Source: Candidatus Methylomirabilota bacterium
Lineage (GTDB): Bacteria > Methylomirabilota > Methylomirabilia > Methylomirabilales > CSP1-5
Length of the DNA stretch: 38,551 nucleotides
NCBI GenBank assembly: GCA_022615475.1
Contig: JAKEGQ010000104.1
Location: 1 to 38,551 of the forward strand
Reading direction: 5' to 3'
A program made the position numbers and the translations under genes. The notes below the pieces were generated by a model that searched no databases, was not told the DNA's origin, and saw only the letters and a program-made list of their open reading frames with translations. Shown piece by piece: positions 14,025-38,449 of the stretch; the first letter of the stretch is position 1; every line of letters starts with the position of its first letter.

Positions 14025-14115
14025 AGTTGACTAGAGCCAAGGGGATATGATAGGAACGCTTAAGTGAGTAAATTTGCTCGTGGGTCTGCCAACGACACAC
14101 AGGGGGTTGGTGACC

Positions 14116-15488: not shown

Positions 15489-15922
15489 GGCTGGAGTGGG
15501 CCGGGTGGTCGCTCTGATCGCAAGATCGGGGAGGAAAGTCCGGACTCCACAGGGCAGGGTGGTGGGTAACGCCCACCGGGGGCAACCCCAGGGAAAGTGC
15601 CACAGAAAAGATACCGCCACGCCGGCAGCCCTTGCTCTCATTCTTGTTGGGGGCTGCCCGCGGGGTAAGGGTGAAAAGGTGCGGTAAGAGCGCACCAGCA
15701 GCCCGGTGACGGGCTGGCTTGGCAAACCCCACCCGGAGCAAGGCCAAATAGGTTCCGCCCCCTTGCTGTTTCAGTGAGGCAGAGAGTGGCCCGCTCTCGT
15801 GGCATGAAAGCCAGGCGGAACGGGTAGGCCGCAAGAGTCCTGCAGCAATGCGGGACCTAGAGGAATGATCACCCTTCGCCGCGAGGCGAAGACAGAATCC
15901 GGCTTACAGGTCCACTCCGGCC
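15489..15922 (+). ncRNA. rnpB: RNase P RNA, bacterial type A
   Basis: Universally conserved GAGGAAAGTCCGGACTCCACAGGGCA (P4 5' strand region) and ACAGAATCCGGCTTA (P4 3' strand). The P1 helix forms between GGCTGGAGTGGGCC (15489-15502) and GGTCCACTCCGGCC (15909-15922). Confidence 0.93.
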
Positions 15923-20399: not shown

Positions 20400-21737
20400 C
20401 TATCGCAGCAGTTCGCTGAGCGCCCGGATACCCCGTTCAGGCGTGGGAAAGACCGGGATCCCCTTCTGGTGAAAGAGGAGCCGCTCTTGCCGTTCGACCT
20501 CTGCCCCCCCCAGGTAGATGACGAGCTGCAGAGGCTCCGTGCCGACCACCTTTGAGGCGCCGGGGATCGGATCGCCAAAGATCAGGCCGACGATGTCAAA
20601 GTGGGGGCCGGCCGCCTCGACCACCTGTCGGTACATCTCGGCGTTGGCGTCGCCAGTGAGATCGAGGGGGTTCGCCACGATGCAGTGCTTTGGCAGGACT
20701 GCCCGGAGTTTTCGCGCCACCTCCTCGGGAAGGGGGACGACATCCAGCCCGGTGTTCTCTGCCATGTCGGTGGCCAGGATGCCGGAGCCACCCGAACTGG
20801 TCACGATGAGGAGGCGCCGGCCCCTGGGGCGGGGGAGATAGGCAAGCGCCTTGCTGAAGTCGTAGAGCTGCTCCAGGTCGTCAGCCCGATGAATCCCGAG
20901 CTGACGGAAGACCCCCTCGTACACCTCATCCCGGCCGGCCAGGGACCGGGTGTGCGATTCGGCGGCCTTGCGCCCTTTGGGGGTCCGCCCCGCCTTCAGG
21001 ACCACGAGGGGTTTCCGACATTGCCGGACGGCCTGGAGGAACTTGTGCGCGGCCTTGACCCCCTCCATGTAAATGGCGATGGTCCTCGTGTGAGGGTCCT
21101 GGGCAAAGTAATGGATGAGATCGGCCTCGTCTACGTCCGCCCTGTTACCCAGACTCACGAACGTAGATACCCCCAGCTCTTCCTGAGAGGCCCAGTCCAT
21201 CAGGGCCGCCCCGACGGTCCCGCTCTGGGAGACAATGGCTACCCCACCGCGGCGCGTGAGGAGGGGCCACGAGGCACACAGGGGATGGTGGGGGTTATTG
21301 ACCCCCTGACAGTTCGGCCCGATGACGGCCACGTTCGACTCCCGGGCCGCCTGGAGGAGCTTGTCTTGCAGCGCCTCACCCTCTGGCCCGGTCTCACTGA
21401 ATCCGCCGCTGATCACGATGGCCCCTTTCGCCCCACGCTTGCTGCACTGCCGAATGGTGTCGGCTACGAGGGGTGCGGGGATGATGATGGTGGCCAGATC
21501 GACCTCAGCAGGAATGGTGTCAATGGAGGGATAACACGGGCGGCCGAGGATCTCGGTCGCTTTGGGATTGATCGGGTAGACCGTGCCGGGAAAGCCGGCC
21601 TCAAGGATGTTCCTGAAGATCTGGTAGCCGAGTTTCTCGGGCGCGGTGGATGCCCCGATCACGGCGACACTCCGGGGGCGGAAGATGGCCTGTAGGGACT
21701 CTCGAGACTTGAAGGAAGGGGATCCGTCGGCGGGCAT
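20400..21737 (-). CDS. acetyl-CoA synthetase (ADP-forming), alpha subunit (CoA-binding plus succinyl-CoA-synthetase-like domains)
   Basis: Contains FRPRSVAVIGAS..., VYPINP, GPNCQG and SQSGT motifs. Confidence 0.85.
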   Translation of the reverse strand: MPADGSPSFKSRESLQAIFRPRSVAVIGASTAPEKLGYQIFRNILEAGFPGTVYPINPKATEILGRPCYPSIDTIPAEVDLATIIIPAPLVADTIRQCSKRGAKGAIVISGGFSETGPEGEALQDKLLQAARESNVAVIGPNCQGVNNPHHPLCASWPLLTRRGGVAIVSQSGTVGAALMDWASQEELGVSTFVSLGNRADVDEADLIHYFAQDPHTRTIAIYMEGVKAAHKFLQAVRQCRKPLVVLKAGRTPKGRKAAESHTRSLAGRDEVYEGVFRQLGIHRADDLEQLYDFSKALAYLPRPRGRRLLIVTSSGGSGILATDMAENTGLDVVPLPEEVARKLRAVLPKHCIVANPLDLTGDANAEMYRQVVEAAGPHFDIVGLIFGDPIPGASKVVGTEPLQLVIYLGGAEVERQERLLFHQKGIPVFPTPERGIRALSELLR

Positions 21738-21972: not shown

Positions 21973-23052
21973 GTGGAGCGCTTCACCAGCGCGCAGGTGA
22001 ATTACGAAGACCTCCTCGAGAGCCTGCAGGATGGCTTGGTGGTCGTGGACCGCGGCCTCCGCGTCACCTTCCTCAATCCGGCCGGCGAAGAGCTGCTGGG
22101 AGTATCGGCCGCCACGGCCCACGGCAAGCCTTTGGCGAGCCTCTTGGGAGCCACCTCTCCCCTCATCGCCCTCGTGGATCGCGCCTTTGAGACCGGGCGG
22201 GCCCATGCCGAGCATGAGGCCAGTGTGCAGAATCCGCAGGGGAAGGTCTCGGTGAGCGCGATGGCCTCACTCTTGTCCGATCACAACGGAGAGGCCCGGG
22301 GGGGTGTCCTCCTCCTTCGGGATCTCACGCGGATTCGAGAACTCGAGGAACAGGTCCGCCGGGCGGAGCGCCTAACGGCCGTGGGAACGCTGGTGGCGGG
22401 CATCGCGCATGAGGTACGTAACCCGTTGATGGGGGTACGGGGGGCTGCGCAGCTCCTCATGGTTGAGTCGAGCTTCCCTCCCGCCCTGAAGGAATATTGT
22501 GACGTGATCATCCGCGAGGTAGACCGGCTGAACGGGCTCGTCGAGGGGATGCTCGCCTTCGCCCAGCCGAGCCCTCCTCGTGTTGTGGAGTGTAACGTCA
22601 ACCAGATCCTCGAAGAGATTCTCGCCCTGGAGGAGCGGGTCCTCCGCCATCGGCGTGTCACGGTCGGGCGCATCTATGATCCTCAAGTCCCATCCATCGC
22701 TGCCGATCCCGACCAGATCCGGCAGGTCTTTCTCAATCTGATTCGGAACGGGGCCGAGGCGATGGAGGGGGGAGGAGAGCTCACCCTGGAGACCGCGTAT
22801 GAGCGCCGCTCACCCCGATGCTTCGGTCTCTCGGTGGCGGTGGTCAAGGTGATCGACCAGGGTTCGGGCCTCTCACCCGAGGCCCGGCAGCACCTCTTCG
22901 ATCCCTTCTTCACCACCAAGCCGAAGGGGACCGGCCTCGGCCTCGCCATCTGCCACCGGATCGTGGGGGACCACCGGGGCCACATCGAGATTGGAGACGC
23001 CGAGGGTAGGGGATGCGCCGTGACTGTCCTTCTGCCGCTGGCGAAACAGTAG
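21973..23052 (+). CDS. ntrB: soluble PAS-domain sensor histidine kinase, NtrB-like
   Basis: No TM segments. One PAS domain, H-box HEVRNPL, N-box LIRNGAEA, and G-boxes DQGSG / GTGLGLA. GTG at 21973 with AGGAG 9 nt upstream. Confidence 0.75.
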   Translation: MERFTSAQVNYEDLLESLQDGLVVVDRGLRVTFLNPAGEELLGVSAATAHGKPLASLLGATSPLIALVDRAFETGRAHAEHEASVQNPQGKVSVSAMASLLSDHNGEARGGVLLLRDLTRIRELEEQVRRAERLTAVGTLVAGIAHEVRNPLMGVRGAAQLLMVESSFPPALKEYCDVIIREVDRLNGLVEGMLAFAQPSPPRVVECNVNQILEEILALEERVLRHRRVTVGRIYDPQVPSIAADPDQIRQVFLNLIRNGAEAMEGGGELTLETAYERRSPRCFGLSVAVVKVIDQGSGLSPEARQHLFDPFFTTKPKGTGLGLAICHRIVGDHRGHIEIGDAEGRGCAVTVLLPLAKQ

Positions 23053-23145
23053 ACCGGGGACCGGAGACCGGAGACCGGAGACGGGAGACCAGCGACCAGG
23101 GACCGGAGACTCTAGTCTTCAATCTCCAGTCTCAAGTCTCCAGTC
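23052..23145. repeat. heptamer tandem-repeat dyad between ntrB and ntrC
   Basis: GACCGGG GACCGGA x3 GACGGGA GACCAGC GACCAGG GACCGGA (23052-23107), turn GAC-TCTA-GTC, then TTCAATC TCCAGTC TCAAGTC TCCAGTC (to 23145). This is close to the reverse complement TCCGGTC. Confidence 0.85.
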
Positions 23146-23162
23146 CAGATGCGGGAGCACAC

Positions 23163-24608
<1,446 letters not shown>

Positions 24609-25899: not shown

Positions 25900-28800
25900 T
25901 CATTCCGCCGTCCGGAAGAAGCGGCAGTAGATCTCCCTCACCGCCTCGGTGTGCCCCAGGAACTCTTGGAGAAGTCCCTGGGTCCTTTCTTCCGGAGGGG
26001 GATCTCCTCGATACAGGTGTCTGGCTAACTCCCCCAGCTCCCCAGCCTCCTCCCGAAACTCATTGAGCGATCGATCATGGATGAGCCGCAATCCGTTCTC
26101 CAGATGCCTGAGGAAGTGGTACGCGGAGATGAGGATCTGATAGTCGCCCTCGGTCAAGAGCTCCTCGGTCCGCAGCTGCGTCAGTGCCTCGACGGTATTC
26201 GTGCGACGCAGGGCCTGATGGGTCCTGCCGAACTGCAGCTGAAGAAGCTGGACGATGAAGAGGATCTCTACCAGCCCCCCTTTCCCGAGTTTGACGTTAT
26301 GCCTCCCTTTGTGTTCCCTGGCCAGCTCGTGACGCATCCGTTCCCTGAGGTGGTGGATCTCCGGGATCGTCTCCTCGGTGAAGGGGCGTTCATACACGAT
26401 CCGATGCACACCCTCTTGGACCCGAGTCGCCAGCCTCTCATCCCCCGCGACGCACCGGGCCCTGAGCAGGGACTGTCGTTCCCATGTCAGGCCCTGCTCG
26501 GCGTGATAGGCCTCAAAGGCCTCGAGTGATGTCACCAGGGGGCCAAACCGTCCTGAGGGGCGCAATCGGGCGTCCACCTGGTATGCATACCCCTCCCGTG
26601 AGGGGCTGCTCAAGGTAGAGATGAATCTCTGGGCCAGTCGAACAAAGTAGTCGTGGTTCGGGAACCCCCGGGTCGTCTTCCCGTCTCCAGCATAGATAAA
26701 GATCAGATCGAGATCCGAATGATACGCCATCTCCCTCGCGCCGAGGGCGCCCAGGCCCAGGATGACCATCGGGACCTCCCGCTGTCGCCGCTTCGCATCA
26801 ACAGACATGGGGACCCCATACCGGGGCCGGAGTTCTTCTCTGCAGAGTTCCCAGGCGGCCTCCAGGCACACCTCGGCGAGGTCGGTGAGCTGTGCGCTGA
26901 CGCCTTGCGTATCCAGCGCCCCATAGAGATCATTCAGACCGATGCGCAGCAGTTCTGCATGGTGAAACCGGCGGAGGGCGTCGAGTTTTTCTTCGAAGGA
27001 TGGTGATGAACGGAGATCCTCCGTGAGCTCCCGGCCCATGAGGTCGCGTTCCATGTGTGGAGCAGAGGTCTCGGCCAAGACAAAGGTGTCCAAGAGCTCC
27101 GGGTGCTGGATGAAGAAGCTGGACAGGTAGGGGCTCGTCCCGAAGAGACGCATCAGAAAGGTCAGAATCTTGGGATTCTCGGCGAGGAGGGCGTAAAAGC
27201 TCGTTCGCGCCCCGACCCTCGTGAGAAACTCCTCCAGGTGGCTCAGGGCCTGTTCAGGGGAGGGAGACTCCAAGGCTTCGGAGAGCATGGCGGGAGCCAA
27301 CCGCCGCAGGAGCCTCCGGGCCTGCTCCGAAAGACGGGGCAGGGGTGGCCCCTCCCCCTGGCTCAGGGTGAGGAGGGAATGGTACGCCCTCTCCGGAGCC
27401 CGGAAGCCCGACGCTGCGAGCTTTTCGAGGATCCGTTCTTTGGCATCCGGATCCGGCAGGAGGTCAAGAAAGTCGCTCGTCTCACCCGAGACCGCCCCCG
27501 ATGGCCGGGCAAAGAGGCGAGTGGTGATCTCCCGGACGGCCACCGCGCGCTCTTGCACGTCAGCGCGAAGGGCCTCGCCCGGCTTTGCACCCCGATAACC
27601 TATGGCCCTGGCCATGCGCGCCAGATCCTCCGGGACGTCGGGGAGGGTATGGGTCTGCTCGTTGTGAGCCATCTGCAGCCGGTGTTCCAGGGTCCTCCAG
27701 GTGATGTACGCCTCTCGGAGGCACCTGTGATCCTCAGCGTGAATGATCCCGAGTGCCTCCAGCTGTTCCAGGGTCCGCAGGGTGTTCCACTCCCGAAGCA
27801 CCCGATACTTCCCCCCGTAGATGAGCTGCAGTGCCTGGACAAAAAACTCGACCTCTCGGATGCCTCCCGTCATGTATTTGAGATTAAATGGGCCCCGGGT
27901 GCTGGCGCGTTCCTGCTCCAGCCTCGTCTTCATCCGCTGGATCTCTTCGATAGCGGTGAAATCGAGGTATCGTCGATAGACGAAGGGCTCGACCCGCTGC
28001 AGGAACTCTCTGCCGAGATCGATATCGCCCGCCACAGGCCTGGCCTTGATCAGGGCTGCCCGTTCCCATGTGTCGCCCCACGACGCATAGTAGAGCTCTG
28101 CGCCGCGGAGCGAGTTGGTGATATTCCCGGATTTTCCGTGAGGCCGGAGCCTGAGGTCGGTCCGGAAGACGAATCCCTCCTCGGTGATCTCTCCCATCGC
28201 GCCGGTGATCATTTCGGCGAGCTTCACGAAAAAGGTGTCGGATCGCAGCCGCTCCTGGCCATCCGGGCCGGACCCTGCCTCGGTCTCTCCCTCGTCCGAC
28301 GTGTGCAGATACTGGAGGTCAATATCGGAGCTGAAGTTCAACTCCCTCCCCCCGAGCTTCCCCATCCCCAAGACCACAAATCCGCGCGGCTCCACCCCCT
28401 TCCGGGCCTCCCGAGCCGGCGGTCGGCCAGACTCGGCGCTGAGTGTCGTATAGCAATACCGGTACGCCAGTTCCAGGCAGGCACTCGCCAGGTCCGAGAC
28501 TTCCTGGGCCACCTCTGGGAAGGGCGCCATCCCGCCGAGATCCCTGAGCCCGATCCGAAGGACCTCCCGCTGCTTGAACCGGCGGAGTTTAGACCGGAGG
28601 TCTGCAAGATCCTGAATCGGCTCTGCGAAGGCCTGGAGAGCGGCACGATGATCGGCTTCTCCTCTGTGCGTATTGATCCCCCCTTCGCAAAAGAGCCATC
28701 GAAGGATCTGGGGATCACGAACCAGCAGTGTGGTGAAGTACGGGGAGAGGGCGAAGGCAGTGACGAGAATCCCGAGGGCCCTCTCGTCCCGGAGCAGCGA

Positions 28801-29058
28801 GCTCAGAACCGATCCAGGTGCGGATGCGACACTCTCAAAGCCATCGAGGGCCCGGTCCGGATCAGGAGATTCTGCACAGAGGGAAAGGAGCCGTGGGAGG
28901 GCAGGCCTCAACGCTTTCTGTTGCTGGAGGCTCTTGAGATTGCTGAGCACCCTCTCATTGTCGGCAAAGCCGATCTTTTTCACGAGGGGCCCAAGACCCT
29001 TCCACTGCTTCGATGCGAGGGCAGAGCCGATGCGGGCCTGAAGGTTCGTCATCTTCAC
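25900..29058 (-). CDS. glnE: bifunctional glutamine synthetase adenylyltransferase/adenylyl-removing enzyme
   Basis: About 1050 aa with two nucleotidyltransferase halves (GMGKLGGRELNFSSDIDL and LGLGALGAREMAYHSDLDL). The start may be GTG 29058 or ATG 29052. Confidence 0.9.
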   Translation of the reverse strand: MKMTNLQARIGSALASKQWKGLGPLVKKIGFADNERVLSNLKSLQQQKALRPALPRLLSLCAESPDPDRALDGFESVASAPGSVLSSLLRDERALGILVTAFALSPYFTTLLVRDPQILRWLFCEGGINTHRGEADHRAALQAFAEPIQDLADLRSKLRRFKQREVLRIGLRDLGGMAPFPEVAQEVSDLASACLELAYRYCYTTLSAESGRPPAREARKGVEPRGFVVLGMGKLGGRELNFSSDIDLQYLHTSDEGETEAGSGPDGQERLRSDTFFVKLAEMITGAMGEITEEGFVFRTDLRLRPHGKSGNITNSLRGAELYYASWGDTWERAALIKARPVAGDIDLGREFLQRVEPFVYRRYLDFTAIEEIQRMKTRLEQERASTRGPFNLKYMTGGIREVEFFVQALQLIYGGKYRVLREWNTLRTLEQLEALGIIHAEDHRCLREAYITWRTLEHRLQMAHNEQTHTLPDVPEDLARMARAIGYRGAKPGEALRADVQERAVAVREITTRLFARPSGAVSGETSDFLDLLPDPDAKERILEKLAASGFRAPERAYHSLLTLSQGEGPPLPRLSEQARRLLRRLAPAMLSEALESPSPEQALSHLEEFLTRVGARTSFYALLAENPKILTFLMRLFGTSPYLSSFFIQHPELLDTFVLAETSAPHMERDLMGRELTEDLRSSPSFEEKLDALRRFHHAELLRIGLNDLYGALDTQGVSAQLTDLAEVCLEAAWELCREELRPRYGVPMSVDAKRRQREVPMVILGLGALGAREMAYHSDLDLIFIYAGDGKTTRGFPNHDYFVRLAQRFISTLSSPSREGYAYQVDARLRPSGRFGPLVTSLEAFEAYHAEQGLTWERQSLLRARCVAGDERLATRVQEGVHRIVYERPFTEETIPEIHHLRERMRHELAREHKGRHNVKLGKGGLVEILFIVQLLQLQFGRTHQALRRTNTVEALTQLRTEELLTEGDYQILISAYHFLRHLENGLRLIHDRSLNEFREEAGELGELARHLYRGDPPPEERTQGLLQEFLGHTEAVREIYCRFFRTAE

Positions 29059-29244: not shown

Positions 29245-29964
29245 CTAAGGGAGCAGGCCCCGGAGTCGCTCTAGCGCTTTGATGGTCAGGCGCCGCCCAT
29301 GCACTTCGAGCAACCCTTCCCGCTGAAATTGGCTCAGGAGGCGCATGGCCGTCTCCGGGCTGAGGCCAACGAGGGCGGCCAGCTCACCCCGACGCAGGTC
29401 TAACTGGAGCGTGATACCCTTCGACCCGGGTTGCCCGTACCGTTCTGCGAGCTCCAAGAGCTGGGTGGCCATCCGCGTGCGGGCGTCGCTCAACGCCACG
29501 GAAGCAAAGCGGACCTGGGTCTCGACCAACACACGGCAGAAGTATCGGAGGAGGGGAATGAGGAGTCCGTCACGACTCTGGAGCAGTTCGAGGAGGGCCT
29601 CGCGTCTTATGAAGGCACTCTGACAGGTTTCGAGGGCCTCAGCGGTATTCGTGAAGGGCATCCCCTCCAGGAGGGCCTCCTCCCCGCAGATCCCCCCGTG
29701 ACCCACGATCCGCAGGATCTGCTGCCGCCCCCGATTGTTACCCCGCGTGAGCTTGACCCGGCCCGAGCAGAGGATGTGGATGCCCAAGGCGGGCATCCCT
29801 TCGTGGTACAGGATCTGTCGGGCCTGATAGGTCCGGCTGTGACGGATCCCCCTCGTCGCCTCGATCTCCTGGGGAGAGAGCCGGCTCATGAGCAGACAGT
29901 TCTGTCTTGCTCTACACTCCGGACACGCGTTGCGTTGCATCGCTCCCTCGTTGAGTCGCCGCAC
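29245..29964 (-). CDS. Crp/Fnr-family transcriptional regulator with an N-terminal Cys cluster (FNR-like)
   Basis: N-terminal CPECRARQNC, a cNMP-binding-like beta barrel and a C-terminal HTH (RGELAALVGLSPETAMRLLSQF). It begins 3 nt after the radical SAM stop. Confidence 0.85.
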   Translation of the reverse strand: MRRLNEGAMQRNACPECRARQNCLLMSRLSPQEIEATRGIRHSRTYQARQILYHEGMPALGIHILCSGRVKLTRGNNRGRQQILRIVGHGGICGEEALLEGMPFTNTAEALETCQSAFIRREALLELLQSRDGLLIPLLRYFCRVLVETQVRFASVALSDARTRMATQLLELAERYGQPGSKGITLQLDLRRGELAALVGLSPETAMRLLSQFQREGLLEVHGRRLTIKALERLRGLLP

Positions 29965-29966
29965 CT

Positions 29967-31112
29967 CTAGGACGCCGGGACATTGGCTGCACCCAGAGAC
30001 CCGCGGGGGATTTCTCCCCGTCCGGGTTGATAGTCACAGAGTGGCTCCTCCCCGAAGCAATCGCCGGTGACCGCATAGGCCCGCGCCCGAGAGCCTCCGC
30101 AGACCCATCGGAACTCACAGCGGCCGCATCGTCCCTTCATCCGATCCATATCCCGGAGCGCCTTCAGCTGGGGAGAACTCTGATAGGTGTCGGCCAGCGG
30201 TGTCTCGCGCACATTCCCGAGCAGCGGATGCGGGAGAAAGCCGGCGGGGTAGACCTCCCCCGTGTGGGAGACAAAGATGACCCCATTGCCGTCCCGAACC
30301 CCGAAGCCCATTCTCCTCCCCAGCCTCCGGATCGCCTCAACGGTCGTCCCCTCGTCGAGCTTTCGCTGGATCCAGTACCTCCGATAATGAGGGGCCTCCA
30401 CCGTGCTGACGTGGAAGGGTGCCTGCCCGGAAATGGAGTACACCCACGCGAAGAGCTTCTCCACGTCCTCCGGCGAGGGGATTCCGAGCGTCGCTCCCCG
30501 CCCCACGGGGACGAGAAGAAACAGACTCCATCGGCGAACGGGAGGCACCGCCTCTTCCCGCAACAGGTGGTACAGCGCGTTCAGATGCGGAAGAGTCTCC
30601 CGCGTGACGGTGGTGTTCACCTGCACGGGGAGATGAAATTCCCGGGCCCACCCCAGCGCGTTCATGGAGCGTTCAAAGGTACCGGGGACTCCCCGGAAGG
30701 TGTCGTGGACCTCGGGGCTCGGTCCATCCAGGCTGATCCCCAGGGCGGCCACGCCGAGACTGCGGAACTCACGGGCCGCCTCGCGGGTCAGGGTCGGGGT
30801 GGTGCTCGGCGTGACGCCGAGGGGGAGGCGGATCTCTCGGGCGTACGCGATGAGCTCAAAGAGATCGGGCCGCTTCATTGGATCCCCACCCGTGAGGATC
30901 ATCATGCTCCCCATGGCCTTGACCTCTCGCATCAGAGCTTTCCCCTCCGCGGTCGAGAGCTCACGCGGATCGCGATGGGGAATCGCCTCGGCCCGGCAGT
31001 GCTTGCATACGAGATCGCAGGCAGTGGTCATCTCCCAATAAACGTTGAGGGGGGCGTCCCAATACAGGGTAAGGAGCCGGGTGGTCTCCTCCAGGAGTTC
31101 TGCGTGAATCAC
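29967..31112 (-). CDS. radical SAM / SPASM-type domain protein
   Basis: CDLVCKHC (CxxxCxxC) near the N-terminus. C-terminal Cys-rich region GRCGRCEFRWVCGGSRARAY...GDC...PLC. GTG start at 31112 with GAGGAGG 6 nt upstream. Confidence 0.88.
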   Translation of the reverse strand: MIHAELLEETTRLLTLYWDAPLNVYWEMTTACDLVCKHCRAEAIPHRDPRELSTAEGKALMREVKAMGSMMILTGGDPMKRPDLFELIAYAREIRLPLGVTPSTTPTLTREAAREFRSLGVAALGISLDGPSPEVHDTFRGVPGTFERSMNALGWAREFHLPVQVNTTVTRETLPHLNALYHLLREEAVPPVRRWSLFLLVPVGRGATLGIPSPEDVEKLFAWVYSISGQAPFHVSTVEAPHYRRYWIQRKLDEGTTVEAIRRLGRRMGFGVRDGNGVIFVSHTGEVYPAGFLPHPLLGNVRETPLADTYQSSPQLKALRDMDRMKGRCGRCEFRWVCGGSRARAYAVTGDCFGEEPLCDYQPGRGEIPRGSLGAANVPAS

Positions 31113-31342
31113 GCCGACCTCCTCAGCGATGAACGGGCTTCGAGTTGCCCCGGCGGGCTCTGTCGTTGATGACGGCGATACCGCCGGCAGAGGATGTGCT
31201 TGGGGGTTCTACAGCGGTTCCAGTACTCCCAGAATCCGGGAAGGGTGCTGAATCCCGAGACCGGATCACGGCACCACGCGGGGACGAGCTGGTCGTCGTG
31301 GACTTGCGGGTCGGAGGGCCACAAGAGGTAAGGGCAGTTCAT
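31109..31342 (-). CDS. small Cys/Trp-rich protein (77 aa), candidate substrate or partner of the radical SAM enzyme
   Basis: ATG at 31342 (AAGGGA 6 nt upstream); an alternative GTG lies at 31363. 19 of the first 21 codons end in G/C, like bona fide genes here. The TGA stop overlaps the GTG start of the radical SAM gene (GTGA). I recognised no family. Confidence 0.5.
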   Translation of the reverse strand: MNCPYLLWPSDPQVHDDQLVPAWCRDPVSGFSTLPGFWEYWNRCRTPKHILCRRYRRHQRQSPPGQLEARSSLRRSA

Positions 31343-31474
31343 GGCGCATCCCTTTCCCGTCACGCCGTCTCTCGGAATCTCTTGGCCGCCGCACTGACCT
31401 AGCGTTCACTGGATCCGGTACCGTCGAGCCACAGCCCTCCCGTCGCCGGACAACTCCCTCCGGATGATCTCAAG

Positions 31475-31490
31475 AGCAAGGGCAGTGCCG
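31475..31490 (-). promoter_or_regulatory. sigma54-like -24/-12 element upstream of the small ORF/radical SAM/FNR cassette
   Basis: The minus strand reads CGGCAC-TGCCC-TTGCT. GG and GC are at exact spacing, with one mismatch (C for T) at the first position. It lies about 135 nt upstream of ATG 31342. Confidence 0.45.
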
Positions 31491-31745
31491 CACCGCGTCT
31501 CAGAAATGCTGAGGGGCAGGAAAACAGATAACCCGTTGATTCTGAAGGACGTCAAATGATCAAAAGGCAAGGGTGAGCCTGGCAGGGAGTGCGGCGATGG
31601 GGCAAGCATGTCCCGGACCAGGCCCTGGTGGGAACGGGAATAGGTGCTTGCTTTTAATGCATTGCGGGCTATTACGGGGAGTCATCCCGTGAGACAGCAG
31701 TGCCACAGGGGACTAGATCCTGTCCCACAGTCTCTTCTGTCTTCC

Positions 31746-32288
31746 CTATTTTTTCCTCGGCGCGCTGCTTTCTTGGCGGACTCGGTCTTGAGACGATTTT
31801 TGCTGCAGGGTCCGAAGATAGTTGACGATGTCCCAGCGCTCCCGGGGCGAGAGGGCGTCCCCTTGGCCGGGCATCAGCGCACCGCCATCCCGGATCGTGC
31901 CGTAGAGGAACCCATCGGGGCGCTGCCGAAAGAGATCGAGGGTCAGGTCGGGCGGGGGGACAAATTTGCTGGCGACGGGGCCACCCCCTTTGGCGTCGGG
32001 ACCGTGGCACAAGGCGCAGTAAATCTGAAAAAGATGCTTGCCGTTTTCGGTGGAGACCGGTCCGGGCTCGACGGGATTTCGCAGCCGCTCCCCGGCCTGG
32101 ACGCGATCCATGGCTGGCTCTTTGCCTTGCCTCGGGACCGACCCTGGGGGGGGCAGGCGTGGGTCTTCCTGCGGCCGGACGGAGGGTTGCTTGACCATGT
32201 CGGTGCTCCACGGCCACCCATACGCGAGGCCCGCCGCCAGGACCACGAGGCCTGCCGCGACCCCGAGCGATCGCCAGAGGCTCGTCAT
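31746..32288 (-). CDS. actE: monoheme cytochrome c, ACIII ActE-like
   Basis: N-terminal membrane anchor and a single CALCH heme motif. WSTDMVKQPSVRP is typical of ActE. ATG at 32288. Confidence 0.7.
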   Translation of the reverse strand: MTSLWRSLGVAAGLVVLAAGLAYGWPWSTDMVKQPSVRPQEDPRLPPPGSVPRQGKEPAMDRVQAGERLRNPVEPGPVSTENGKHLFQIYCALCHGPDAKGGGPVASKFVPPPDLTLDLFRQRPDGFLYGTIRDGGALMPGQGDALSPRERWDIVNYLRTLQQKSSQDRVRQESSAPRKK

Positions 32289-32316
32289 GGGCGAGACTCG
32301 CTTCCATGCCAATCGG

Positions 32317-33591
32317 TTACGCGCTTGACGAGGTCTTCTCAAGGGCGTGCGCTCCTGTGAGATTCGGGATCTCAACCGACGGTGTCAAGGGGAGAATGGG
32401 GAACTGCTGGAAAAAAAAGCCGTAGCTCCACCCCGCCACACCGAGGAACCCGGCCGTCACGCCGATCTCAATCCAGCCCAAGGGGGCGGCCTCCCCGGGC
32501 CAGAGCGACGGGACCACCAATACGTAACGCTCGAGCCACAGCCCGGCACTGATGAGCAGACCGATCGCAAGCATGATCGTTGTATTCTCCTTGGCCCTTC
32601 GGCTCAGGAAGACCACGAAGGGAGCGAGGACGACCGCGACCAGGACGCTCCACGACAAGGGCGCCCAGGGATGCTCCCAGAGACGGAGGACCACGAAGTG
32701 CGTCTCTTCGGGGAGGTTGGCGTACCAGATGACGATGTATTGTGACCAGACCATCGCGGCATACATCAAGGTGAAGCCGAAGACGAGCTTGCCGAGATCG
32801 GAGAGCTGACGAGATGCGATCCCGGGAAGTCCCCGGCGGGCCAGCAGGGCGACCACCACGGTCAGGCCGGCAAGGCCCAAGTAGAAAGAGCTCACGAAGA
32901 AGTACACGCCGAAGAGCGAGCTATACCAGAAGGGATCCAGGGCCATGATCAGGTCAAAGGCCATGAAGGTGTACGTGATCGGATACGCCAGGAGCACGCC
33001 GGCCGCCAGCACATCGACGCCGCGCTCGCTCCGTTGGATCTCCAGTCGCTCGCCCAGCCACCCCTGCGCGAGCACGCTGTAGAGCCATCGCCGCGGCCTG
33101 AGCCCGCGCTCGAGGGCCGCGCCCACCTCGGGCCGCAGGGAGTAGTAGACGAAGAGGAGGCTCAACACGGTCATCGCTCCGAGGCCGAGTCCTCCGCGCA
33201 CGAAGATGAACCGAGGATCGAACCAGGCGCCGCGCAGGGGGTTCACCTCCTGGACGCGGCCGAAGAAGAGGTCCAGGGCGGGATAGAGCGGGAAGAAGAG
33301 CAGGAAACTCAACGGGAGAAAGGCCACCATCCCCTCGGCCAGGCGCCGGATGGTGAGACCCCATCGGGCCTCGACCACGTGGTAGATGGCGGCGAAGACC
33401 ACGGCCCCCTGGGCCAGGCCGCTCCAGAAGAGAAAGTTCACCAGATAGATCTGCCACGCCCGCGCCGGGTCGTGGAGAACGGCGATCAGGAGGATCGCCG
33501 AGCCCAGGCCGCTGAGCCCGATGCACGCTCGCATCACGCCCCGGTTCATGGGGGGCGGCAGCGTCCAGCGCTCTTCCCACCGCTCTGGCAT
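32317..33591 (-). CDS. actF: NrfD-like polytopic membrane subunit, ACIII ActF-like
   Basis: Paralogous to the ActC ORF (compare NFLFWSGLAQGAVVFAAI with NFVFWVGIAHSGTLISAI). ATG at 33591 with GGAGGAAG. Confidence 0.7.
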   Translation of the reverse strand: MPERWEERWTLPPPMNRGVMRACIGLSGLGSAILLIAVLHDPARAWQIYLVNFLFWSGLAQGAVVFAAIYHVVEARWGLTIRRLAEGMVAFLPLSFLLFFPLYPALDLFFGRVQEVNPLRGAWFDPRFIFVRGGLGLGAMTVLSLLFVYYSLRPEVGAALERGLRPRRWLYSVLAQGWLGERLEIQRSERGVDVLAAGVLLAYPITYTFMAFDLIMALDPFWYSSLFGVYFFVSSFYLGLAGLTVVVALLARRGLPGIASRQLSDLGKLVFGFTLMYAAMVWSQYIVIWYANLPEETHFVVLRLWEHPWAPLSWSVLVAVVLAPFVVFLSRRAKENTTIMLAIGLLISAGLWLERYVLVVPSLWPGEAAPLGWIEIGVTAGFLGVAGWSYGFFFQQFPILPLTPSVEIPNLTGAHALEKTSSSA

Positions 33592-33625
33592 CTTCGCTTC
33601 CTCCGTCCGCGTCGGGGAGATCCTT

Positions 33626-34141
33626 TCACTCCCCGACCCGGTGGACCTCCTCCGCATCCGCGCTCTCGAGGAGGCGGGTCACCGTGTCGAAATCCTTGGC
33701 CTCGCAGCGCACCCAGAGTCCAAACCGGTCCTCCGAGAAGCGCGGGTCATACGCCGGAACGGTGTGGATCAGCGGCAGGCGGGCGTTCAGCAGCATCCCC
33801 CCGAGCGTCAGGAGCCCGCCGAAGAGGATCGTCAGCTCAAAGACGATGATGAGGAACGGGGGGATCGAGACAATCGGCTTCCCCCCGGTGATGAGTGAGA
33901 CGTGGAGCGAGGTGCCGATGGTCAGGGTGAACCCCGTCGCCGCGCCCAGGAGGCAGCCGATGAGGGTGAAGACGCGCACCGGACTGGGCGGCTTCTTCAG
34001 TGCCTCGTCGATCGCGTGATGCGGGACCGGCGACAGGGCCTGGAGATCCCGATACCCCGCCTGACGCAGCCGGTTGATGGCCTCGAGGAGGCTGTCCAGG
34101 TGGCGGAAGCTCCCCACGAGCCCTGCGGATGGTCGTGCCAT
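33626..34141 (-). CDS. actD: DUF3341 membrane protein, ACIII ActD-like
   Basis: ATG at 34141, 2 nt after the actC stop. Contains GYRDLQALSPVPHH followed by two TM helices. Confidence 0.75.
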   Translation of the reverse strand: MARPSAGLVGSFRHLDSLLEAINRLRQAGYRDLQALSPVPHHAIDEALKKPPSPVRVFTLIGCLLGAATGFTLTIGTSLHVSLITGGKPIVSIPPFLIIVFELTILFGGLLTLGGMLLNARLPLIHTVPAYDPRFSEDRFGLWVRCEAKDFDTVTRLLESADAEEVHRVGE

Positions 34142-34143
34142 GG

Positions 34144-35469
34144 TTACGCCTCGCTCCCGGTCGACTTCATGGGCGGAGGCAGCTCCTCCTTGACCTCCAC
34201 GATGGAGATGACCGGCAAGAGCTTTGCGAAGAGGAGGAACCAGAAGAAGAACCATGCAAAGGCGCCCAGGGTGATGCTGATATCCACCCAGGTCGGGATA
34301 AACAGCCCCCATGAGTACGGGTCGTACTCGTGGGCCAATCCGGTCACGATGATGACGAACCGCTCACACCACATCCCGATGTTGATCAGGATCGAGATCC
34401 CGAGGAGCCAGGGGGTGCTGGTGCGGATCCGCTTGACGAAGAAGAGGAGGGGGACGAGCGAGTTGAAAAGGATCATGATCCAGAAGGGGACGGCGTATTC
34501 GCCCGTCACCTGATAGACGAAGCGCTGCCACTCCGGGACGTTGTTGCTGTACCAGGCGATGTAGGTCTCGACCACATAGGCATAGCCGACGATGAGGCCG
34601 GTCAGGATGATGAGCTTGGCGAGGTTCTCGAGGTGCGTCTGCGTGAGATACGTGTCGAGGCGGAAAATACGCCGGAGCGGGATCAGGAGGGTGATGACCA
34701 TCGCCAGCCCCGAATGGATCGCACCGGCGACGAAGTAGGGGGCGAAGATGGTGCTGTGCCAGCCGGCGACGATGGACTGGGCGAAGTCCCACGAGACGAC
34801 GCTGTGCACCGAGACGACCAGGGGCGTCGCCAATGCCGCCAGGAACAGGTAGGCGGCCTTGTAGTGGCGCCACTGTCGATCGGTCCCCTGCCAGCCCTGC
34901 GCCAGGAAGGCGTAGAGGTGATGCCGCCATCCGGTGGTGCGGTTTCGCACCACGGCCACGTCCGGGACCAGTCCCGTGAAGAAGAAGAGGACGCTGATGA
35001 TCATGTAGGTCATGACGGCAAAGACGTCCCAGATCAGGGGTGAGCGGAAATTGACCCATAGCCCGCCCACCTGCGGATACGGCAGGAGCCAGTAGAAGAA
35101 CCAGGGGCGCCCGAGGTGGATCAGGGGGAAGAGGCCGGCGGTCAAGAGGGCAAAGACGGTGACCGCCTCCGCCGTCCGGTAGACGCTGGCACGCCACCGG
35201 ACCCTGAACAAGTACAGGATGGCCGAGATCAGGGTGCCGGAGTGGGCGATCCCGACCCAGAAGACAAAGTTGGTGATGTCCATCGCCCACATGACCGGGT
35301 GGGTGAGCCCCCACACTCCCAGGCCGCGCTGGACCGTGTACTGCCAGGCGAAGATTCCCCAGAGGAGTACCAGCAGGTTGGCGAAGAAAACGACATAGTA
35401 CCGCCACCCGGGGGCCTTCATGGCCTGAAGGATATCTCGGTCAACCTGGCTGTAGGTGAGGTTGGACAC
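34144..35469 (-). CDS. actC: NrfD/PsrC-like quinol-interacting membrane subunit, ACIII ActC
   Basis: About 10 TM helices with NrfD-family motifs. The GTG start overlaps the actB stop by 1 nt. Confidence 0.85.
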   Translation of the reverse strand: MSNLTYSQVDRDILQAMKAPGWRYYVVFFANLLVLLWGIFAWQYTVQRGLGVWGLTHPVMWAMDITNFVFWVGIAHSGTLISAILYLFRVRWRASVYRTAEAVTVFALLTAGLFPLIHLGRPWFFYWLLPYPQVGGLWVNFRSPLIWDVFAVMTYMIISVLFFFTGLVPDVAVVRNRTTGWRHHLYAFLAQGWQGTDRQWRHYKAAYLFLAALATPLVVSVHSVVSWDFAQSIVAGWHSTIFAPYFVAGAIHSGLAMVITLLIPLRRIFRLDTYLTQTHLENLAKLIILTGLIVGYAYVVETYIAWYSNNVPEWQRFVYQVTGEYAVPFWIMILFNSLVPLLFFVKRIRTSTPWLLGISILINIGMWCERFVIIVTGLAHEYDPYSWGLFIPTWVDISITLGAFAWFFFWFLLFAKLLPVISIVEVKEELPPPMKSTGSEA

Positions 35470-38390
35470 TAGCCCTCCACCGGCCCGGCAGTGATCTTCT
35501 TGAGGTAGGTGATCGCCGGCTGGGTATTCAGATATTCCAGGACCCGATACCGCCGCGGGTCTTTCGATCGCCGAGAGACCTCGCTGTCAAGGTCCTTCAG
35601 GTCGCCAAAGACGATCGCCCGCGTGGGGCAGGTCTGGGCGCACGCGGGGACGATCTCGCCGTCGCGGACGGCGCGTCCCTCTACCTTGGCCTGGAGCTTC
35701 CCGCCCTGGATCCGCTGGACGCAGAAGGTGCACTTCTCCATCACTCCCATACTCCGGACGGTCACATCCGGGTTGAGCTGCAGATGGAGCGGTTCCGGCC
35801 ACTCCGCCATGAACCAGTTGAACCGGCGGACCTTGTACGGGCAGTTGTTGGAGCAGTACCGGGTGCCGACGCACCGGTTGTAGACCTGCACGTTGAGGCC
35901 CTCCTGGTTGTGATAGGTGGCGTAGACGGGGCAGACGGATTCGCACGGGGCGTTGTCACATTGCTGGCAGAGCATCGGGAGGAAGCGGTGCTCCGGATAA
36001 TCGGGTGCCCCTTCGTCCACGCGTTGGACTCGGATCCAGGACATTTCGCGTCCCTTGGCCACCTGCACCTTTCCCATCACGGGGATGTTGTTTTCGGCAT
36101 AACAGGCGGTCACGCAGGCCCCGCATCCGATGCAGGCGTTCAGGTCGATGGTCATGCCCCACCGGTGTTTCGGATGCGAATGCTCCGGATACATCTGCAG
36201 CAGGTGGGGGTGTTTCTCGGGCTCCCGAAGGCGCTGGACCTCGGCCAGCGGGACGGTCTGGATGATTCCGCGATCGTGAGGACGATCACTTCCGGTGGTC
36301 GAGGCCAGCAGGTGCCGCCTCCCGGTCCGGGTGACCAGGACCCGCGTAGCAATCCACGGCTGACCGCCCGATGCCGTCTCCGGCTCGGCGGGGAGGAGAG
36401 GGAGGGGATTGGCGCCACGCCCCTCGGCGTACCGGCCGAACGCCGAGTGCCCCTGGCCGACGGCGACCGCCGCCGTCCCGAGGCGCACACCGCCGGAGAG
36501 ATGCGCCGGCAGCTCGAGGGTGCCCAGCGGAGACTGCACTCGCAGCAACTCCCCCTCGCTGACACCCAGCCGCTTGGCGTCGGCGGGATGCATGTCGATC
36601 CAATTATCCCAGACGATCTGGGTCAGGGCATCGGGGAGTTCCTGCAGCCAGGGACGGTTGGCGGTCCGCCCGTCATAGAAGATCGGAGAGGGATAGGGGA
36701 TCAGGGTCAATCCCTCGCTCTCTCCCGCGAAGCGGGGTGCCTCGAATCGGTGCCGGAAGACCTCCGGGTTGGGACGCACGGGGCGTAACGGGACAGATCG
36801 GAAGAGGCCGCCCTGCTGAAGGGCCCGCGCCCAGAAGGTCTCAAAATCCTCGGCAGGCCCGGAATGCCGGTGAAGACCTTTCCACTGATCCTTCAGGTAC
36901 GCGGGGAAGTCCTCCCAGGGGAGCTGCTGCTCGAGCCCCATCCGCCTGGCGACCGACAGGAGGACATCGCCCAGGGCCTTGGTCTCGTAGAGGGGTCGCA
37001 TAGTCGGCTGCTGCAGCCCCTGGATACCGTCCCAGGGCTCGATGTCGCTCCAGCCCTCCAGGAAGGTGTGATCCGGCAGGATGAGATGTGACGCCATCGC
37101 GGTTTCATCCGGAAAACTGGCGAAGCTCACCACCAGTGGCACCTTCTCCAGCGCCTTCCGGAAGCGCTCCCCCTCCGGCAGCGTGAATGCGGGGTTCACG
37201 CCTGCCAAGAGCACCAGGGAGACCTCGCCCTTTTCCATCGACTGGAGGAGGGTTCGCATCTCACGGTAGGGCGAGGTCCGTCCGGCGGCGGCGGTCGGGC
37301 CGAAACGGACGGTCCGGCCGACGTTCCCCGCAACGTAGTTGAGCAGAGTGGTCGCCAGGCAGATGTCCGTCCCGTTGGAGGTCTTGCCGTCGGCCACGGC
37401 GAGACTCGGCCGTGACCGGGCAAAGGCGCGAGCCAGGACGCGAACCTTGTCGGGCGAGATCCCGGCCTGTTCCGCGGTTTCCGCCGGCGTCCAGCCCTCC
37501 ACCAGCCTTCGGAGGGCCGCCTCCTCGGAGGCGGGGAGAGCAGTCGCGAGCCCCTCCGCGAGAATGGCGTGAATCATCCCCAGGGCCAGTACCCCTTCGG
37601 TGCCCGGGCGCACGGCGATCCATTCGTCAGCGTTGGCACCGGTGAGCGACAGGCGAGGACCGATGTAGGTGAAGCGCCCCATGCGGCCGTCGCGGTACGT
37701 TCGCATCGCGCCGAATTGGCGGGCGTGCTCGACGGGAGAGAGCCAGGTTTCGAGGAAGTCGGCCCCGAAGGAGAGGATCAGTTCCGCCTGCTCGAGATCA
37801 TAGAAGGGAACGGCGGCGACGCCGAAGGCCAGGCGATTCGCCTCACGAAGCGGTTCGTGGCTGACGGCCTCGTAGCGGAGCCGGGACCCGCCCCCTACGG
37901 CCCGGAGCCACTCGTCGATCAGACGGTCGAGGCTTCCCGTGACGAGCGGGGTCACCAGGGCGACGCGACCTCGCCGTCCCTTGAGTTCTGCCAACCGGGC
38001 GGCGAGAGCCTTCTCCCCTTCCTCCCACGAGGTCGGGCCCCACGAGCCGTCCGTCCCCTTCCTCAGGGGCTGTCGGATCCGGTCCGGGTTGTAGAGCCCT
38101 TGGAGGCTTGCCTGACCACGGGCGCAGAGGCGGCCGCGGTTGACCGGATGATCGGGGTTCCCCTCGACCTTGATGGCACGCCCCTCCATGGTCTTCACCA
38201 GCATCCCGCAGCCGGCGGGACATTCCCGGCAGACGGTGGCGTACCAGGTGGCCTCGCCCGGGATGATCTCCTCGGGTGGAACGACATACGGAATCAGACT
38301 CTCGGGCGGCTGCGCCCCACAACCCGCCATCGCGGCCGTCGCCCCACCGATCCCGATGATCTTGAGGAAGTCGCGCCGATTCACTTCCAT
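35469..38390 (-). CDS. actB: fused molybdopterin-oxidoreductase-like / 4Fe-4S ferredoxin subunit, ACIII ActB
   Basis: Tat signal MEVNRRDFLKIIGIGGATAAMAGC. An N-terminal Cys cluster CRECPAGC...C. A C-terminal set of four ferredoxin-type Cys clusters (CIGCGAC, CQQCDNAPC, CVGTRYC, CTFC...CAQTC). ATG at 38390. The ORF-track TTG at 38435 reads through the repeat array. Confidence 0.88.
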   Translation of the reverse strand: MEVNRRDFLKIIGIGGATAAMAGCGAQPPESLIPYVVPPEEIIPGEATWYATVCRECPAGCGMLVKTMEGRAIKVEGNPDHPVNRGRLCARGQASLQGLYNPDRIRQPLRKGTDGSWGPTSWEEGEKALAARLAELKGRRGRVALVTPLVTGSLDRLIDEWLRAVGGGSRLRYEAVSHEPLREANRLAFGVAAVPFYDLEQAELILSFGADFLETWLSPVEHARQFGAMRTYRDGRMGRFTYIGPRLSLTGANADEWIAVRPGTEGVLALGMIHAILAEGLATALPASEEAALRRLVEGWTPAETAEQAGISPDKVRVLARAFARSRPSLAVADGKTSNGTDICLATTLLNYVAGNVGRTVRFGPTAAAGRTSPYREMRTLLQSMEKGEVSLVLLAGVNPAFTLPEGERFRKALEKVPLVVSFASFPDETAMASHLILPDHTFLEGWSDIEPWDGIQGLQQPTMRPLYETKALGDVLLSVARRMGLEQQLPWEDFPAYLKDQWKGLHRHSGPAEDFETFWARALQQGGLFRSVPLRPVRPNPEVFRHRFEAPRFAGESEGLTLIPYPSPIFYDGRTANRPWLQELPDALTQIVWDNWIDMHPADAKRLGVSEGELLRVQSPLGTLELPAHLSGGVRLGTAAVAVGQGHSAFGRYAEGRGANPLPLLPAEPETASGGQPWIATRVLVTRTGRRHLLASTTGSDRPHDRGIIQTVPLAEVQRLREPEKHPHLLQMYPEHSHPKHRWGMTIDLNACIGCGACVTACYAENNIPVMGKVQVAKGREMSWIRVQRVDEGAPDYPEHRFLPMLCQQCDNAPCESVCPVYATYHNQEGLNVQVYNRCVGTRYCSNNCPYKVRRFNWFMAEWPEPLHLQLNPDVTVRSMGVMEKCTFCVQRIQGGKLQAKVEGRAVRDGEIVPACAQTCPTRAIVFGDLKDLDSEVSRRSKDPRRYRVLEYLNTQPAITYLKKITAGPVEG

Positions 38391-38397
38391 GAGGGTC

Positions 38398-38449
38398 GTC
38401 CGAAGTCCGATGTCCGACGTCCGAAGTCCGACCAAATTCGAATTTCGAA
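38398..38449. repeat. heptamer tandem-repeat dyad in the actB leader
   Basis: GTCCGAA GTCCGAT GTCCGAC GTCCGAA GTCCGAC (38398-38432), then ATTCGAA TTTCGAA (38436-38449). This is close to the reverse complement TTCGGAC. Confidence 0.85.

Follow-up and report, generated by a model that had tools for sequence, protein, structure and literature searches.

A small four-cysteine protein gene translationally coupled to an AhbD-like radical SAM gene in Candidatus Methylomirabilota

All AhbD enzymes share a CX3CX2C motif together with a C-terminal CX2CX5CX20-38C motif, and many AhbDs, those of non-methanogenic archaea among them, do not have the other SPASM cysteines (Fix et al., PMC10452713). AhbC and NirJ belong to the same group of radical S-adenosylmethionine (SAM) enzymes as AhbD and have the C-terminal cysteine motif in common with it (PMC10114771). 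AhbD homologues occur in organisms that lack the other Ahb genes, and an AhbD-like radical SAM enzyme is expected as the anoxic replacement of the O2-dependent ChdC in the coproporphyrin pathway (PMC10114771, PMC13564367). We analysed a stretch of 38,551 nucleotides from a Candidatus Methylomirabilota bacterium (contig JAKEGQ010000104.1 of assembly GCA_022615475.1; the window), in which a radical SAM gene lies between a small open reading frame (ORF) for a cysteine-rich protein and a gene for a Crp/FNR-family regulator, all three on the minus strand. An earlier note on this DNA had taken these genes for a redox-regulated cassette in which the enzyme matures the small protein into a modified peptide or cofactor, and had offered as an alternative a heme-modifying enzyme beside an unrelated ORF. 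The enzyme is a member of a known AhbD-like group (TIGR04053), and it is the small four-cysteine (Cys4) protein coupled to it that is new.

The radical SAM gene (29,967–31,112, minus strand) encodes 381 amino acids and was assigned to the AhbD-like TIGR04053 family by hidden Markov model (HMM) scores, cysteine pattern and the context of its orthologues. A profile-HMM comparison with the NCBIfam SPASM, NirJ, AhbC and AhbD families, which the earlier note had proposed as a check, put TIGR04053 above its cut-off and AhbD next. The match to TIGR04053 scored 428.6 bits (cut-off 395) and ran the full length of the model (positions 5–366 of 366). The AhbD heme b synthase model (TIGR04545) also matched over its full length, with 292.4 bits, followed by NirJ2, AhbC and NirJ; the AhbC/NirJ models reached only 163–174 bits. 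The NCBIfam models of peptide maturases were far below their cut-offs (MftC, 112 against 265 bits; PqqE, 103 against 381; StsB, 103 against 625), as were the sactipeptide models. Pfam recognised a Radical_SAM domain (residues 27–182) and a SPASM domain (residues 277–333) only; there was no RiPP (ribosomally synthesised and post-translationally modified peptide) recognition element (RRE) or PqqD-like element in the enzyme, and no PqqD-like ORF in the cassette. As the Radical_SAM domain begins at residue 27 and its CX3CX2C motif at residue 32, too little sequence precedes them for a peptide-recognition domain at the N-terminus. A PDB search with the enzyme returned only distant matches to PqqE, BlsE and SkfB, with no AhbD structure among them. 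A literature search found no paper naming TIGR04053 and no published biochemistry for the family.

The cysteines of the enzyme follow the AhbD pattern. The earlier note had pointed to CDLVCKHC, which corresponds to the radical SAM cluster residues C32/C36/C39, and to a C-terminal region, CGRCEFRWVCGG...C...C, which corresponds to C329/C332/C338/C352/C359. Both are present, but C352 was not conserved among 27 aligned orthologues. The only cysteines invariant in 27/27 were C32/C36/C39 and C329-X2-C332-X5-C338-X20-C359, and the enzyme agrees with the AhbD motif CX3CX2C plus CX2CX5CX20-38C, with X20 as its last spacing. The earlier note had also read GEVYPAG, at the place of a usual SPASM motif, as the possible loss of one auxiliary-cluster ligand. 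GEVYPAG is indeed there, and it is found family-wide; what is missing is the whole set of ligands for the first auxiliary cluster (AuxI), whose positions were occupied by residues other than cysteine in 27 of the 27 orthologues. The full SPASM set of seven or eight cysteines for two auxiliary clusters was not found, with only four cysteines of the type that binds the second cluster (AuxII) being conserved. The enzyme therefore appears to carry a single putative auxiliary cluster site with C329, C332, C338 and C359 as its predicted ligands.

The window was compared with fetched loci (labelled by L numbers), including a species-level set of 46 orthologue loci. From Methylomirabilales to Gemmatimonadota, Binatia, Polyangiales and Acidobacteriota the enzyme was 60–80% identical, which is more in keeping with a housekeeping enzyme than with a RiPP maturase, and it was approximately 50% identical to the orthologues in a Bipolaricaulia-type cluster. 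In one such cluster, on a Bipolaricaulia metagenome-assembled genome (L050), the gene order was hemA, hemB, hemL, hemC, hemD, the TIGR04053 gene (470 bits), a CgoX-like gene of the protoporphyrinogen/coproporphyrinogen-oxidase family and hemE. At L052 the enzyme gene follows hemB, with hemE downstream. In Gemmatimonadales the order at L033 was a ChdC/HemQ-like gene, hemE, hemH, a CgoX-like oxidase gene, hemL and the enzyme gene, and the enzyme gene stood likewise behind ChdC/HemQ-like, hemE, hemH, oxidase and hemL genes at L035, L048 and L030. Heme genes were present within 6 kb of the enzyme gene at 10 of the 46 species-level loci, and 8 of those 10 were full clusters. Six Gemmatimonadales loci (L030, L031, L032, L033, L035 and L048) had a ChdC/HemQ-like gene and a TIGR04053 gene within the same heme cluster. 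Such clusters suggest a pair of coproheme decarboxylases, one for aerobic and one for anaerobic conditions, comparable to HemF and HemN, with ChdC as the O2- or peroxide-dependent member.

The function of the enzyme is read from its homology and from the heme-cluster context of its orthologues. On this basis it is best read as an AhbD-type, O2-independent coproheme decarboxylase and not as a peptide maturase, and a role in heme synthesis is very probable. At a locus annotated as Methylomirabilales (L070), an AhbC/NirJ-like gene and a TIGR04053 gene share a contig and flank a metal transporter, and in this lineage the enzyme may close a siroheme-type route. In this region of L070 (1340–8070) the two radical SAM genes are separated by ZnuA/ABC genes with an iron-dependent repressor domain. 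In the corresponding region of L071 (6087–10,678), whose taxonomy is unassigned, Nramp and Usp genes come between the AhbC-like gene and another radical SAM gene. A literature search on Methylomirabilis with AhbD or siroheme returned nothing.

The gene for the small protein (31,109–31,342, minus strand), delimited by reading the ORF and by its homologues, has its ATG at 31,342–31,340 and its TGA at 31,111–31,109 and is 77 codons long; an alternative GTG at 31,363 would give 84 codons. A Shine-Dalgarno-like AAGGGA (31,349–31,354, minus strand), read from the sequence, lies 6 nt 5′ of the ATG. The product contains four cysteines (C3, C24, C44 and C52), four tryptophans and the motifs WPSDP, WCRDP and FWEYWNRC, and G or C is the third base in 19 of its first 21 codons. 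The earlier note was right about the coordinates, the 77 codons, the Cys and Trp counts, FWEYWNRC, the G/C-ending codons and the AAGGGA. It had further stressed that W-x-x-D-P occurs twice; both copies are present, but only CRDP is conserved, W8 and W23 varying among the homologues.

The homologues of the small ORF were few. A protein search found 7 in 5.8e9 proteins, a profile search gave 8 matches in 1.84e9 cluster representatives, and a metagenome scan added 14 further loci. An HMM scan in six frames of every fetched locus found 28 copies (E ≤ 1e-22). The homologues were 43–95% identical with the reading frame kept, and they begin with M-x-C, which makes the ATG at 31,342 the conserved start. 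The invariant residues were C3, P4, C24, D26, F37, W38, W41, N42, R43, C44, C52 and R56. The patch FW.[YF]WNRC was likewise invariant, and an N-terminal C-P-[YF]-[LF] was invariant in 15 distinct complete sequences. The ratio of non-synonymous to synonymous substitution rates (dN/dS), calculated by the Nei-Gojobori method on the 55-codon core with synonymous sites near saturation, was 0.06–0.30, compared with 0.15–0.20 for the adjacent enzyme in the same pairs. With homologues, a conserved frame and these dN/dS values, the small ORF is a real gene under purifying selection and belongs to an undescribed family. The earlier note was thus correct that the ORF is genuine and conserved, and the absence of purifying selection, which it had named as a finding that would count against its proposal, was not what we saw. 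There was no Pfam or NCBIfam match to the small protein, even with E up to 10 on 13 members, and a profile search of PDB sequences (E up to 10) gave no match either.

The small protein is basic, with an isoelectric point (pI) of about 9.8–10.3, and its C-terminal tail is basic and variable. The last residues, LRRSA, were invariant except at L009, where an in-frame stop precedes them, and at L010, which has an unrelated tail. This invariance is best explained by the ribosome-binding site and start codon of the enzyme gene, which overlap the ORF there. The in-frame stop at L009 (5951–5953; also in L067 and L068) follows ...YRRLRR and lies 48 nt 5′ of the enzyme start, and the DNA past it still encodes the SSLRRSA junction. 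This truncation indicates that the basic variable tail is dispensable and that its conservation is at the level of the DNA, as a ribosome-binding site. One homologue of 152 amino acids (P0134) has an insertion of approximately 65 residues between the half with C-R-D-P and the half with FWEYWNRC; this points either to halves that can be set apart or to an artefact of assembly or annotation. Identity was uneven when L055 (240–600) was compared with positions 31,100–31,420 of the window: the enzyme was 94.5% identical from residue 17 onwards and the regulator 91%, with approximately 44% identity for the small protein and approximately 60% for the DNA of the small ORF and the region upstream. All the invariant residues were kept at L055. 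Either recombination with its breakpoint where the enzyme gene begins, or a chimera in the metagenome assembly, accounts for this pattern.

A stop/start overlap couples translation of the small ORF to that of the radical SAM gene. The junction (31,109–31,124, minus strand) consists of GTGA (31,109–31,112), in which the start codon of the enzyme gene (GTG) and the stop codon of the small ORF (TGA) share nucleotides, and of the Shine-Dalgarno sequence of the enzyme gene, GAGGAGG (31,118–31,124), which falls within the last codons of the small ORF, at its 3′-end. Both had been recognised in the earlier note, and an identical 4-nt overlap recurs in L001–L006, L055 and others. The DNA of the junction was nearly invariant across the compared loci. 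Where the contig permits, all three genes (for the small protein, the enzyme and the Crp/FNR regulator) are kept together in the Methylomirabilales lineage, often beside a respiratory operon resembling Alternative Complex III (ACIII).

All 28 copies of the small ORF lie directly upstream of a radical SAM gene of the tetrapyrrole type, with a 4-nt overlap or a gap of at most about 30 nt, and they are confined to Methylomirabilales-type sequences. In the species-level set the ORF was present at four loci (L007–L010) and missing from the other 42; neither tblastn nor a six-frame HMM scan found a divergent small ORF upstream of the orthologues from outside Methylomirabilales. The loci without it include two close relatives: L011, which has the same flanking genes, and L070. 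The enzymes of these two loci were 73–79% identical to the ORF-bearing ones, which is about the similarity among the ORF-bearing enzymes themselves, and no column of the enzyme alignment separated loci with the small ORF from loci without it. A re-purposing of the enzyme in the lineage with the small ORF was rejected, there being no discriminating residue. That the small protein replaces the missing AuxI ligand was likewise rejected, as the AuxI cysteines are absent family-wide, also where there is no small ORF.

On the most divergent branch (L054 and L071) the small ORF precedes a different enzyme, an AhbC/NirJ1-like one (529 and 509 bits) in place of TIGR04053, with a gap of 17–26 nt where the other loci have the overlap. 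The AhbC-like partner of L054 has the full SPASM cysteine set. A second radical SAM gene on the same contig, whose product is 40% identical to the enzyme of the window (at L071), has no small ORF. The small-protein genes of these loci (L054, 382–621; L071, 5824–6060) lie downstream of a ThiO/DAO-type oxidase gene, and the source annotation has no gene call for the L071 copy.

From this distribution we infer that the small protein is probably a Methylomirabilales-specific accessory protein for radical SAM enzymes of the heme pathway. Because the ORF is missing at most orthologue loci and the family switches between two enzymes, an optional accessory protein fits better than a dedicated substrate. 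A dedicated enzyme-substrate pair is also argued against by the lack of a recognition domain and of AuxI in the enzyme, and by the lack of any adaptation of the enzyme to the ORF. The earlier note had named the absence of the ORF beside orthologous enzymes as evidence that would tell against its proposal, and in substance this is the case, at 42 of 46 loci including L011 and L070. It had named a place of the enzyme in the NirJ/AhbD heme clade as a further such finding, and in substance this holds as well, by the HMM scores, the cysteine pattern and the heme clusters around the orthologues. Its alternative of an AhbD-type heme enzyme fares better, with the ORF as a partner; the word "unrelated" is too strong, as every copy of the ORF was found beside a heme-type radical SAM gene. 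The small protein is probably a partner of the enzyme and not its substrate.

The reading that we favour combines an AhbD-type heme synthase with a lineage-specific accessory protein that relays electrons for it, and we regard it, taken as a whole, as moderately probable. The enzyme would convert iron-coproporphyrin III (coproheme) to heme b without oxygen, by means of its radical SAM cluster and the auxiliary [4Fe-4S] cluster at its C-terminus. The small protein would be made in step with the enzyme through the stop/start overlap. Its four invariant cysteines could hold a metal centre, either Fe-S or Fe/Zn-Cys4, and the invariant aromatic and basic patch (FWEYWNR...RYR) might dock it onto the enzyme. 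Once docked, it may accept the electron left by each oxidative decarboxylation, or donate to the radical SAM cluster. The decarboxylation by AhbD requires an electron acceptor, and the path of the electron after the release of CO2 is unresolved (PMC10114771). That the partner is specifically an electron relay is a tentative suggestion, which we would call possible at best.

Several results weigh against this reading. The enzyme did not reach the AhbD equivalog cut-off (292.4 against 500 bits) and belongs, by this measure, to a sister family of AhbD and is not an AhbD equivalog; no other heme biosynthesis gene was found within the window. The loci without the small ORF, L011 and L070, imply that the small protein is not essential to catalysis, and the full SPASM set in the AhbC-like partner enzyme shows that the small protein is not simply a substitute for the missing AuxI cluster. 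No known Fe-S or zinc motif has the spacing of the four cysteines (x17-20, x19, x7), and the protein is strongly basic, unlike most ferredoxins and rubredoxins. The AlphaFold2 model, from an alignment of 13 sequences, was poor (pLDDT 49.6) and unusable. Finally, no FNR box (TTGAT-N4-ATCAA, up to two mismatches) was found in the spacer upstream of the small ORF (31,343–31,745), and the number of such boxes in the window as a whole was not above chance.

An alternative is that the small protein handles tetrapyrroles. It would bind coproheme or heme b through its Cys-Pro dipeptide and its aromatic and arginine patch, as a chaperone or a feedback sensor, for example handing coproheme from AhbC to AhbD or taking heme off the synthase. 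Cys-Pro followed by hydrophobic residues is the classic motif of transient heme binding (PMC10377097). The invariant C-P-[YF]-[LF] of the 15 complete sequences conforms to this, and several homologues have a second CP at the fourth cysteine (R-C-P-x-Y); CP dipeptides are, however, common, and such a short motif is a lead only. The position of the gene beside AhbC-like or AhbD-like genes is also suggestive, since AhbC yields coproheme and AhbD uses it as substrate, and a protein with a pI of about 10 suits a ligand with four to six carboxylates. Against this, a heme regulatory motif needs one cysteine, yet four are invariant, and His56 of the close homologues is Tyr in distant ones. We consider tetrapyrrole handling unlikely, and it is because all four cysteines are invariant that the electron relay is slightly favoured over it.

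A regulatory role is quite improbable. In one form of it the small ORF would be an upstream ORF that steers translation of the enzyme by coupling or by a nascent peptide that responds to a ligand. The overlap of stop and start codons and the location of the enzyme's ribosome-binding site inside the ORF would suit this, but conservation spans the 55-residue Cys4 core and not a short C-terminal arrest motif. The distance from core to stop also varies (shortened at L009, with another tail at L010), and L054 and L071 have the 17–26 nt gap instead of the overlap. In its other form the protein would be a WhiB-like Fe-S sensor of redox state or nitric oxide with a nucleic-acid-binding tail; the arginine-rich basic tail after the last cysteine and the oxygen-sensor-type regulator in the same cassette speak for it, and the lack of similarity to WhiB or any other Pfam family speaks against it.

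The proposal of the earlier note, that the small protein is a ribosomal precursor which receives thioether or C-C crosslinks on Cys, Trp or Asp and becomes a RiPP or a cofactor peptide like QhpC or PqqA, is very improbable: the coupled position beside a SPASM-type radical SAM gene in 28/28 loci, the invariant Cys, Trp and Asp residues and a size typical of QhpC-like peptides are outweighed by the orthology of the enzyme to a heme-cluster family without the ORF at 42/46 species-level loci, the lack of any enzyme residue that co-varies with the ORF, the absence of AuxI and of an RRE/PqqD element from the enzyme and of a protease, exporter or QhpA/B-like gene from the cassette, the scores of the PqqE, MftC and sactipeptide models far below their cut-offs, and the pairing of the same small-protein family with an AhbC/NirJ-like enzyme in another lineage. 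The call of a RiPP or cofactor-maturation cassette is accordingly not supported, the ORF being missing from 42 of 46 orthologue loci and the enzyme lying in the AhbD/NirJ heme group.

The third gene of the cassette (29,245–29,964, minus strand) was identified as a Crp/FNR-family regulator from its Pfam domains (cNMP_binding, PF00027; HTH_Crp_2, PF13545; Crp, PF00325) and its cysteine motif. The [4Fe-4S] cluster of Escherichia coli FNR is held by an N-terminal C-x2-C-x5-C and one central cysteine. The regulator has the same type of pattern, C14-x2-C17-x5-C23 and C114. It scored 71.5 bits against a cut-off of 228 for the NCBIfam Fnr model, and is a member of the family and not an FNR equivalog. 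We regard it as a putative FNR-type [4Fe-4S] oxygen sensor beside an oxygen-independent heme enzyme. The earlier note was right that an FNR-type regulator follows the enzyme gene, but the gap to its GTG is 2 nt and not 3 nt, and the true start is probably the ATG at 29,940 (MQRNACPEC...), 26 nt downstream and preceded by GAGGGAG, because homologues have five to seven residues ahead of their first cysteine. A Crp/FNR gene also lies downstream of the enzyme gene in L008–L011, L055–L059, L062, L063 and L066–L068, and the Crp/FNR protein of L070 carries an N-terminal YHS metal-binding domain.

Upstream, a spacer of approximately 400 nt (31,343–31,745, minus strand) separates the last gene of the ACIII-like operon from the small ORF and presumably holds the promoter of the cassette. 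There was no sigma-70-like match in it, and one weak terminator-like hairpin was found at 31,482–31,496. No Rfam riboswitch or leader RNA was found near the cassette. Redox regulation of the cassette by its own FNR-type protein is a reasonable guess.

The surroundings of the cassette in the window were as follows. Directly upstream lies an ACIII/Qrc-like respiratory operon (31,746–38,435, minus strand). It encodes a fused molybdopterin-like and Fe-S subunit (988 amino acids, QrcB/QrcC-like), an NrfD/DsrP-like membrane subunit, a 228-amino-acid subunit, a second membrane subunit (446 amino acids) and, as its last gene, a c-type cytochrome (31,746–32,375). Similar ACIII-like complexes precede the cassette in L001, L008, L009 and L011. 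Nitrogen-regulation genes flank the cassette: glnE, for the glutamine synthetase adenylyltransferase (1052 amino acids; 25,900–29,058, minus strand), lies directly downstream of the Crp/FNR gene, an adjacency also seen in L055, and ntrB-like and ntrC-like genes are found at 21,973–24,608 (plus strand). Additionally, a bacterial class A RNase P RNA was found at full length (15,493–15,922, plus strand; 306.5 bits). A B12-binding radical SAM protein at 14,074–15,444 (plus strand), with TIGR04072 (lipid biosynthesis) as its best model at 135 bits against a cut-off of 360, is unrelated to the cassette. ARAGORN called a 90-nt tRNA-Asn with anticodon ATT (21,264–21,353, plus strand) inside the ORF of an acetate-CoA ligase alpha subunit (20,400–21,737, minus strand); this call is very likely a false positive.

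The presence of a small ORF next to a radical SAM gene of the SPASM type does not by itself identify a RiPP cassette, and here the enzyme belongs to the heme branch. The heme-cluster contexts give TIGR04053 a concrete candidate function, that of the AhbD-like anaerobic coproheme decarboxylase which reviews expect and which is so far uncharacterised. The small protein represents an undescribed family tightly linked to radical SAM enzymes of two successive heme steps. Should it be an electron partner or a carrier of coproheme or heme, it would bear on the fate of the electron after AhbD decarboxylation, and on the supply of heme in nitrite-dependent methane oxidisers, which are rich in cytochromes yet live without external oxygen. 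The narrow distribution of the family, and its dispensability in close relatives, limit its general importance. Were the substrate reading true, peptide maturation would extend to a radical SAM clade known so far only for tetrapyrrole chemistry; that the AhbD-like and AhbC-like enzymes of Methylomirabilales also crosslink the invariant Cys, Trp and Asp of the small protein, giving a new peptide-borne cofactor or RiPP, is hardly to be expected.

With PqqE/PqqA, MftC/MftA, AlbA/SboA and QhpD/QhpC the cassette shares a small ORF directly 5′ of a radical SAM gene with a SPASM-type C-terminus. It differs from these SPASM peptide maturases in having one auxiliary cluster site and no RRE or PqqD, in reaching 100–112 bits on their models where the cut-offs are 265–625, in the absence of the small ORF from most orthologues, and in the lack of genes for a protease, an exporter or a partner subunit. 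FNR/Anr-type control is known for oxygen-independent heme enzymes such as hemN. The window resembles this in linking an oxygen-independent heme radical SAM gene to a Crp/FNR protein with C-x2-C-x5-C...C; it differs in that the regulator is encoded within the cassette and falls below the FNR model cut-off, and in that no FNR box was detected upstream of the cassette. ChuX, working with ChuW, is a small heme-handling partner of a radical SAM enzyme. In comparison with ChuX/ChuW and with heme regulatory (Cys-Pro) proteins, the small protein has no sequence similarity and has four invariant cysteines rather than one, and is alike in carrying C-P-[YF]-[LF] beside a tetrapyrrole radical SAM gene. 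The enzyme is set apart from AhbC/NirJ by its score of only 163–174 bits and by the full SPASM cysteine set of the L054 enzyme, and the two are connected by the presence of the small-protein family upstream of an AhbC/NirJ1-like gene in L054 and L071. Compared with AhbD (TIGR04545), the enzyme of the window lineage differs in being preceded by a coupled 77-amino-acid ORF, which is absent from the AhbD literature searched; it is like AhbD in its CX3CX2C and CX2CX5CX20C motifs and, like the AhbD subgroup of non-methanogenic archaea, in having no AuxI cysteines.

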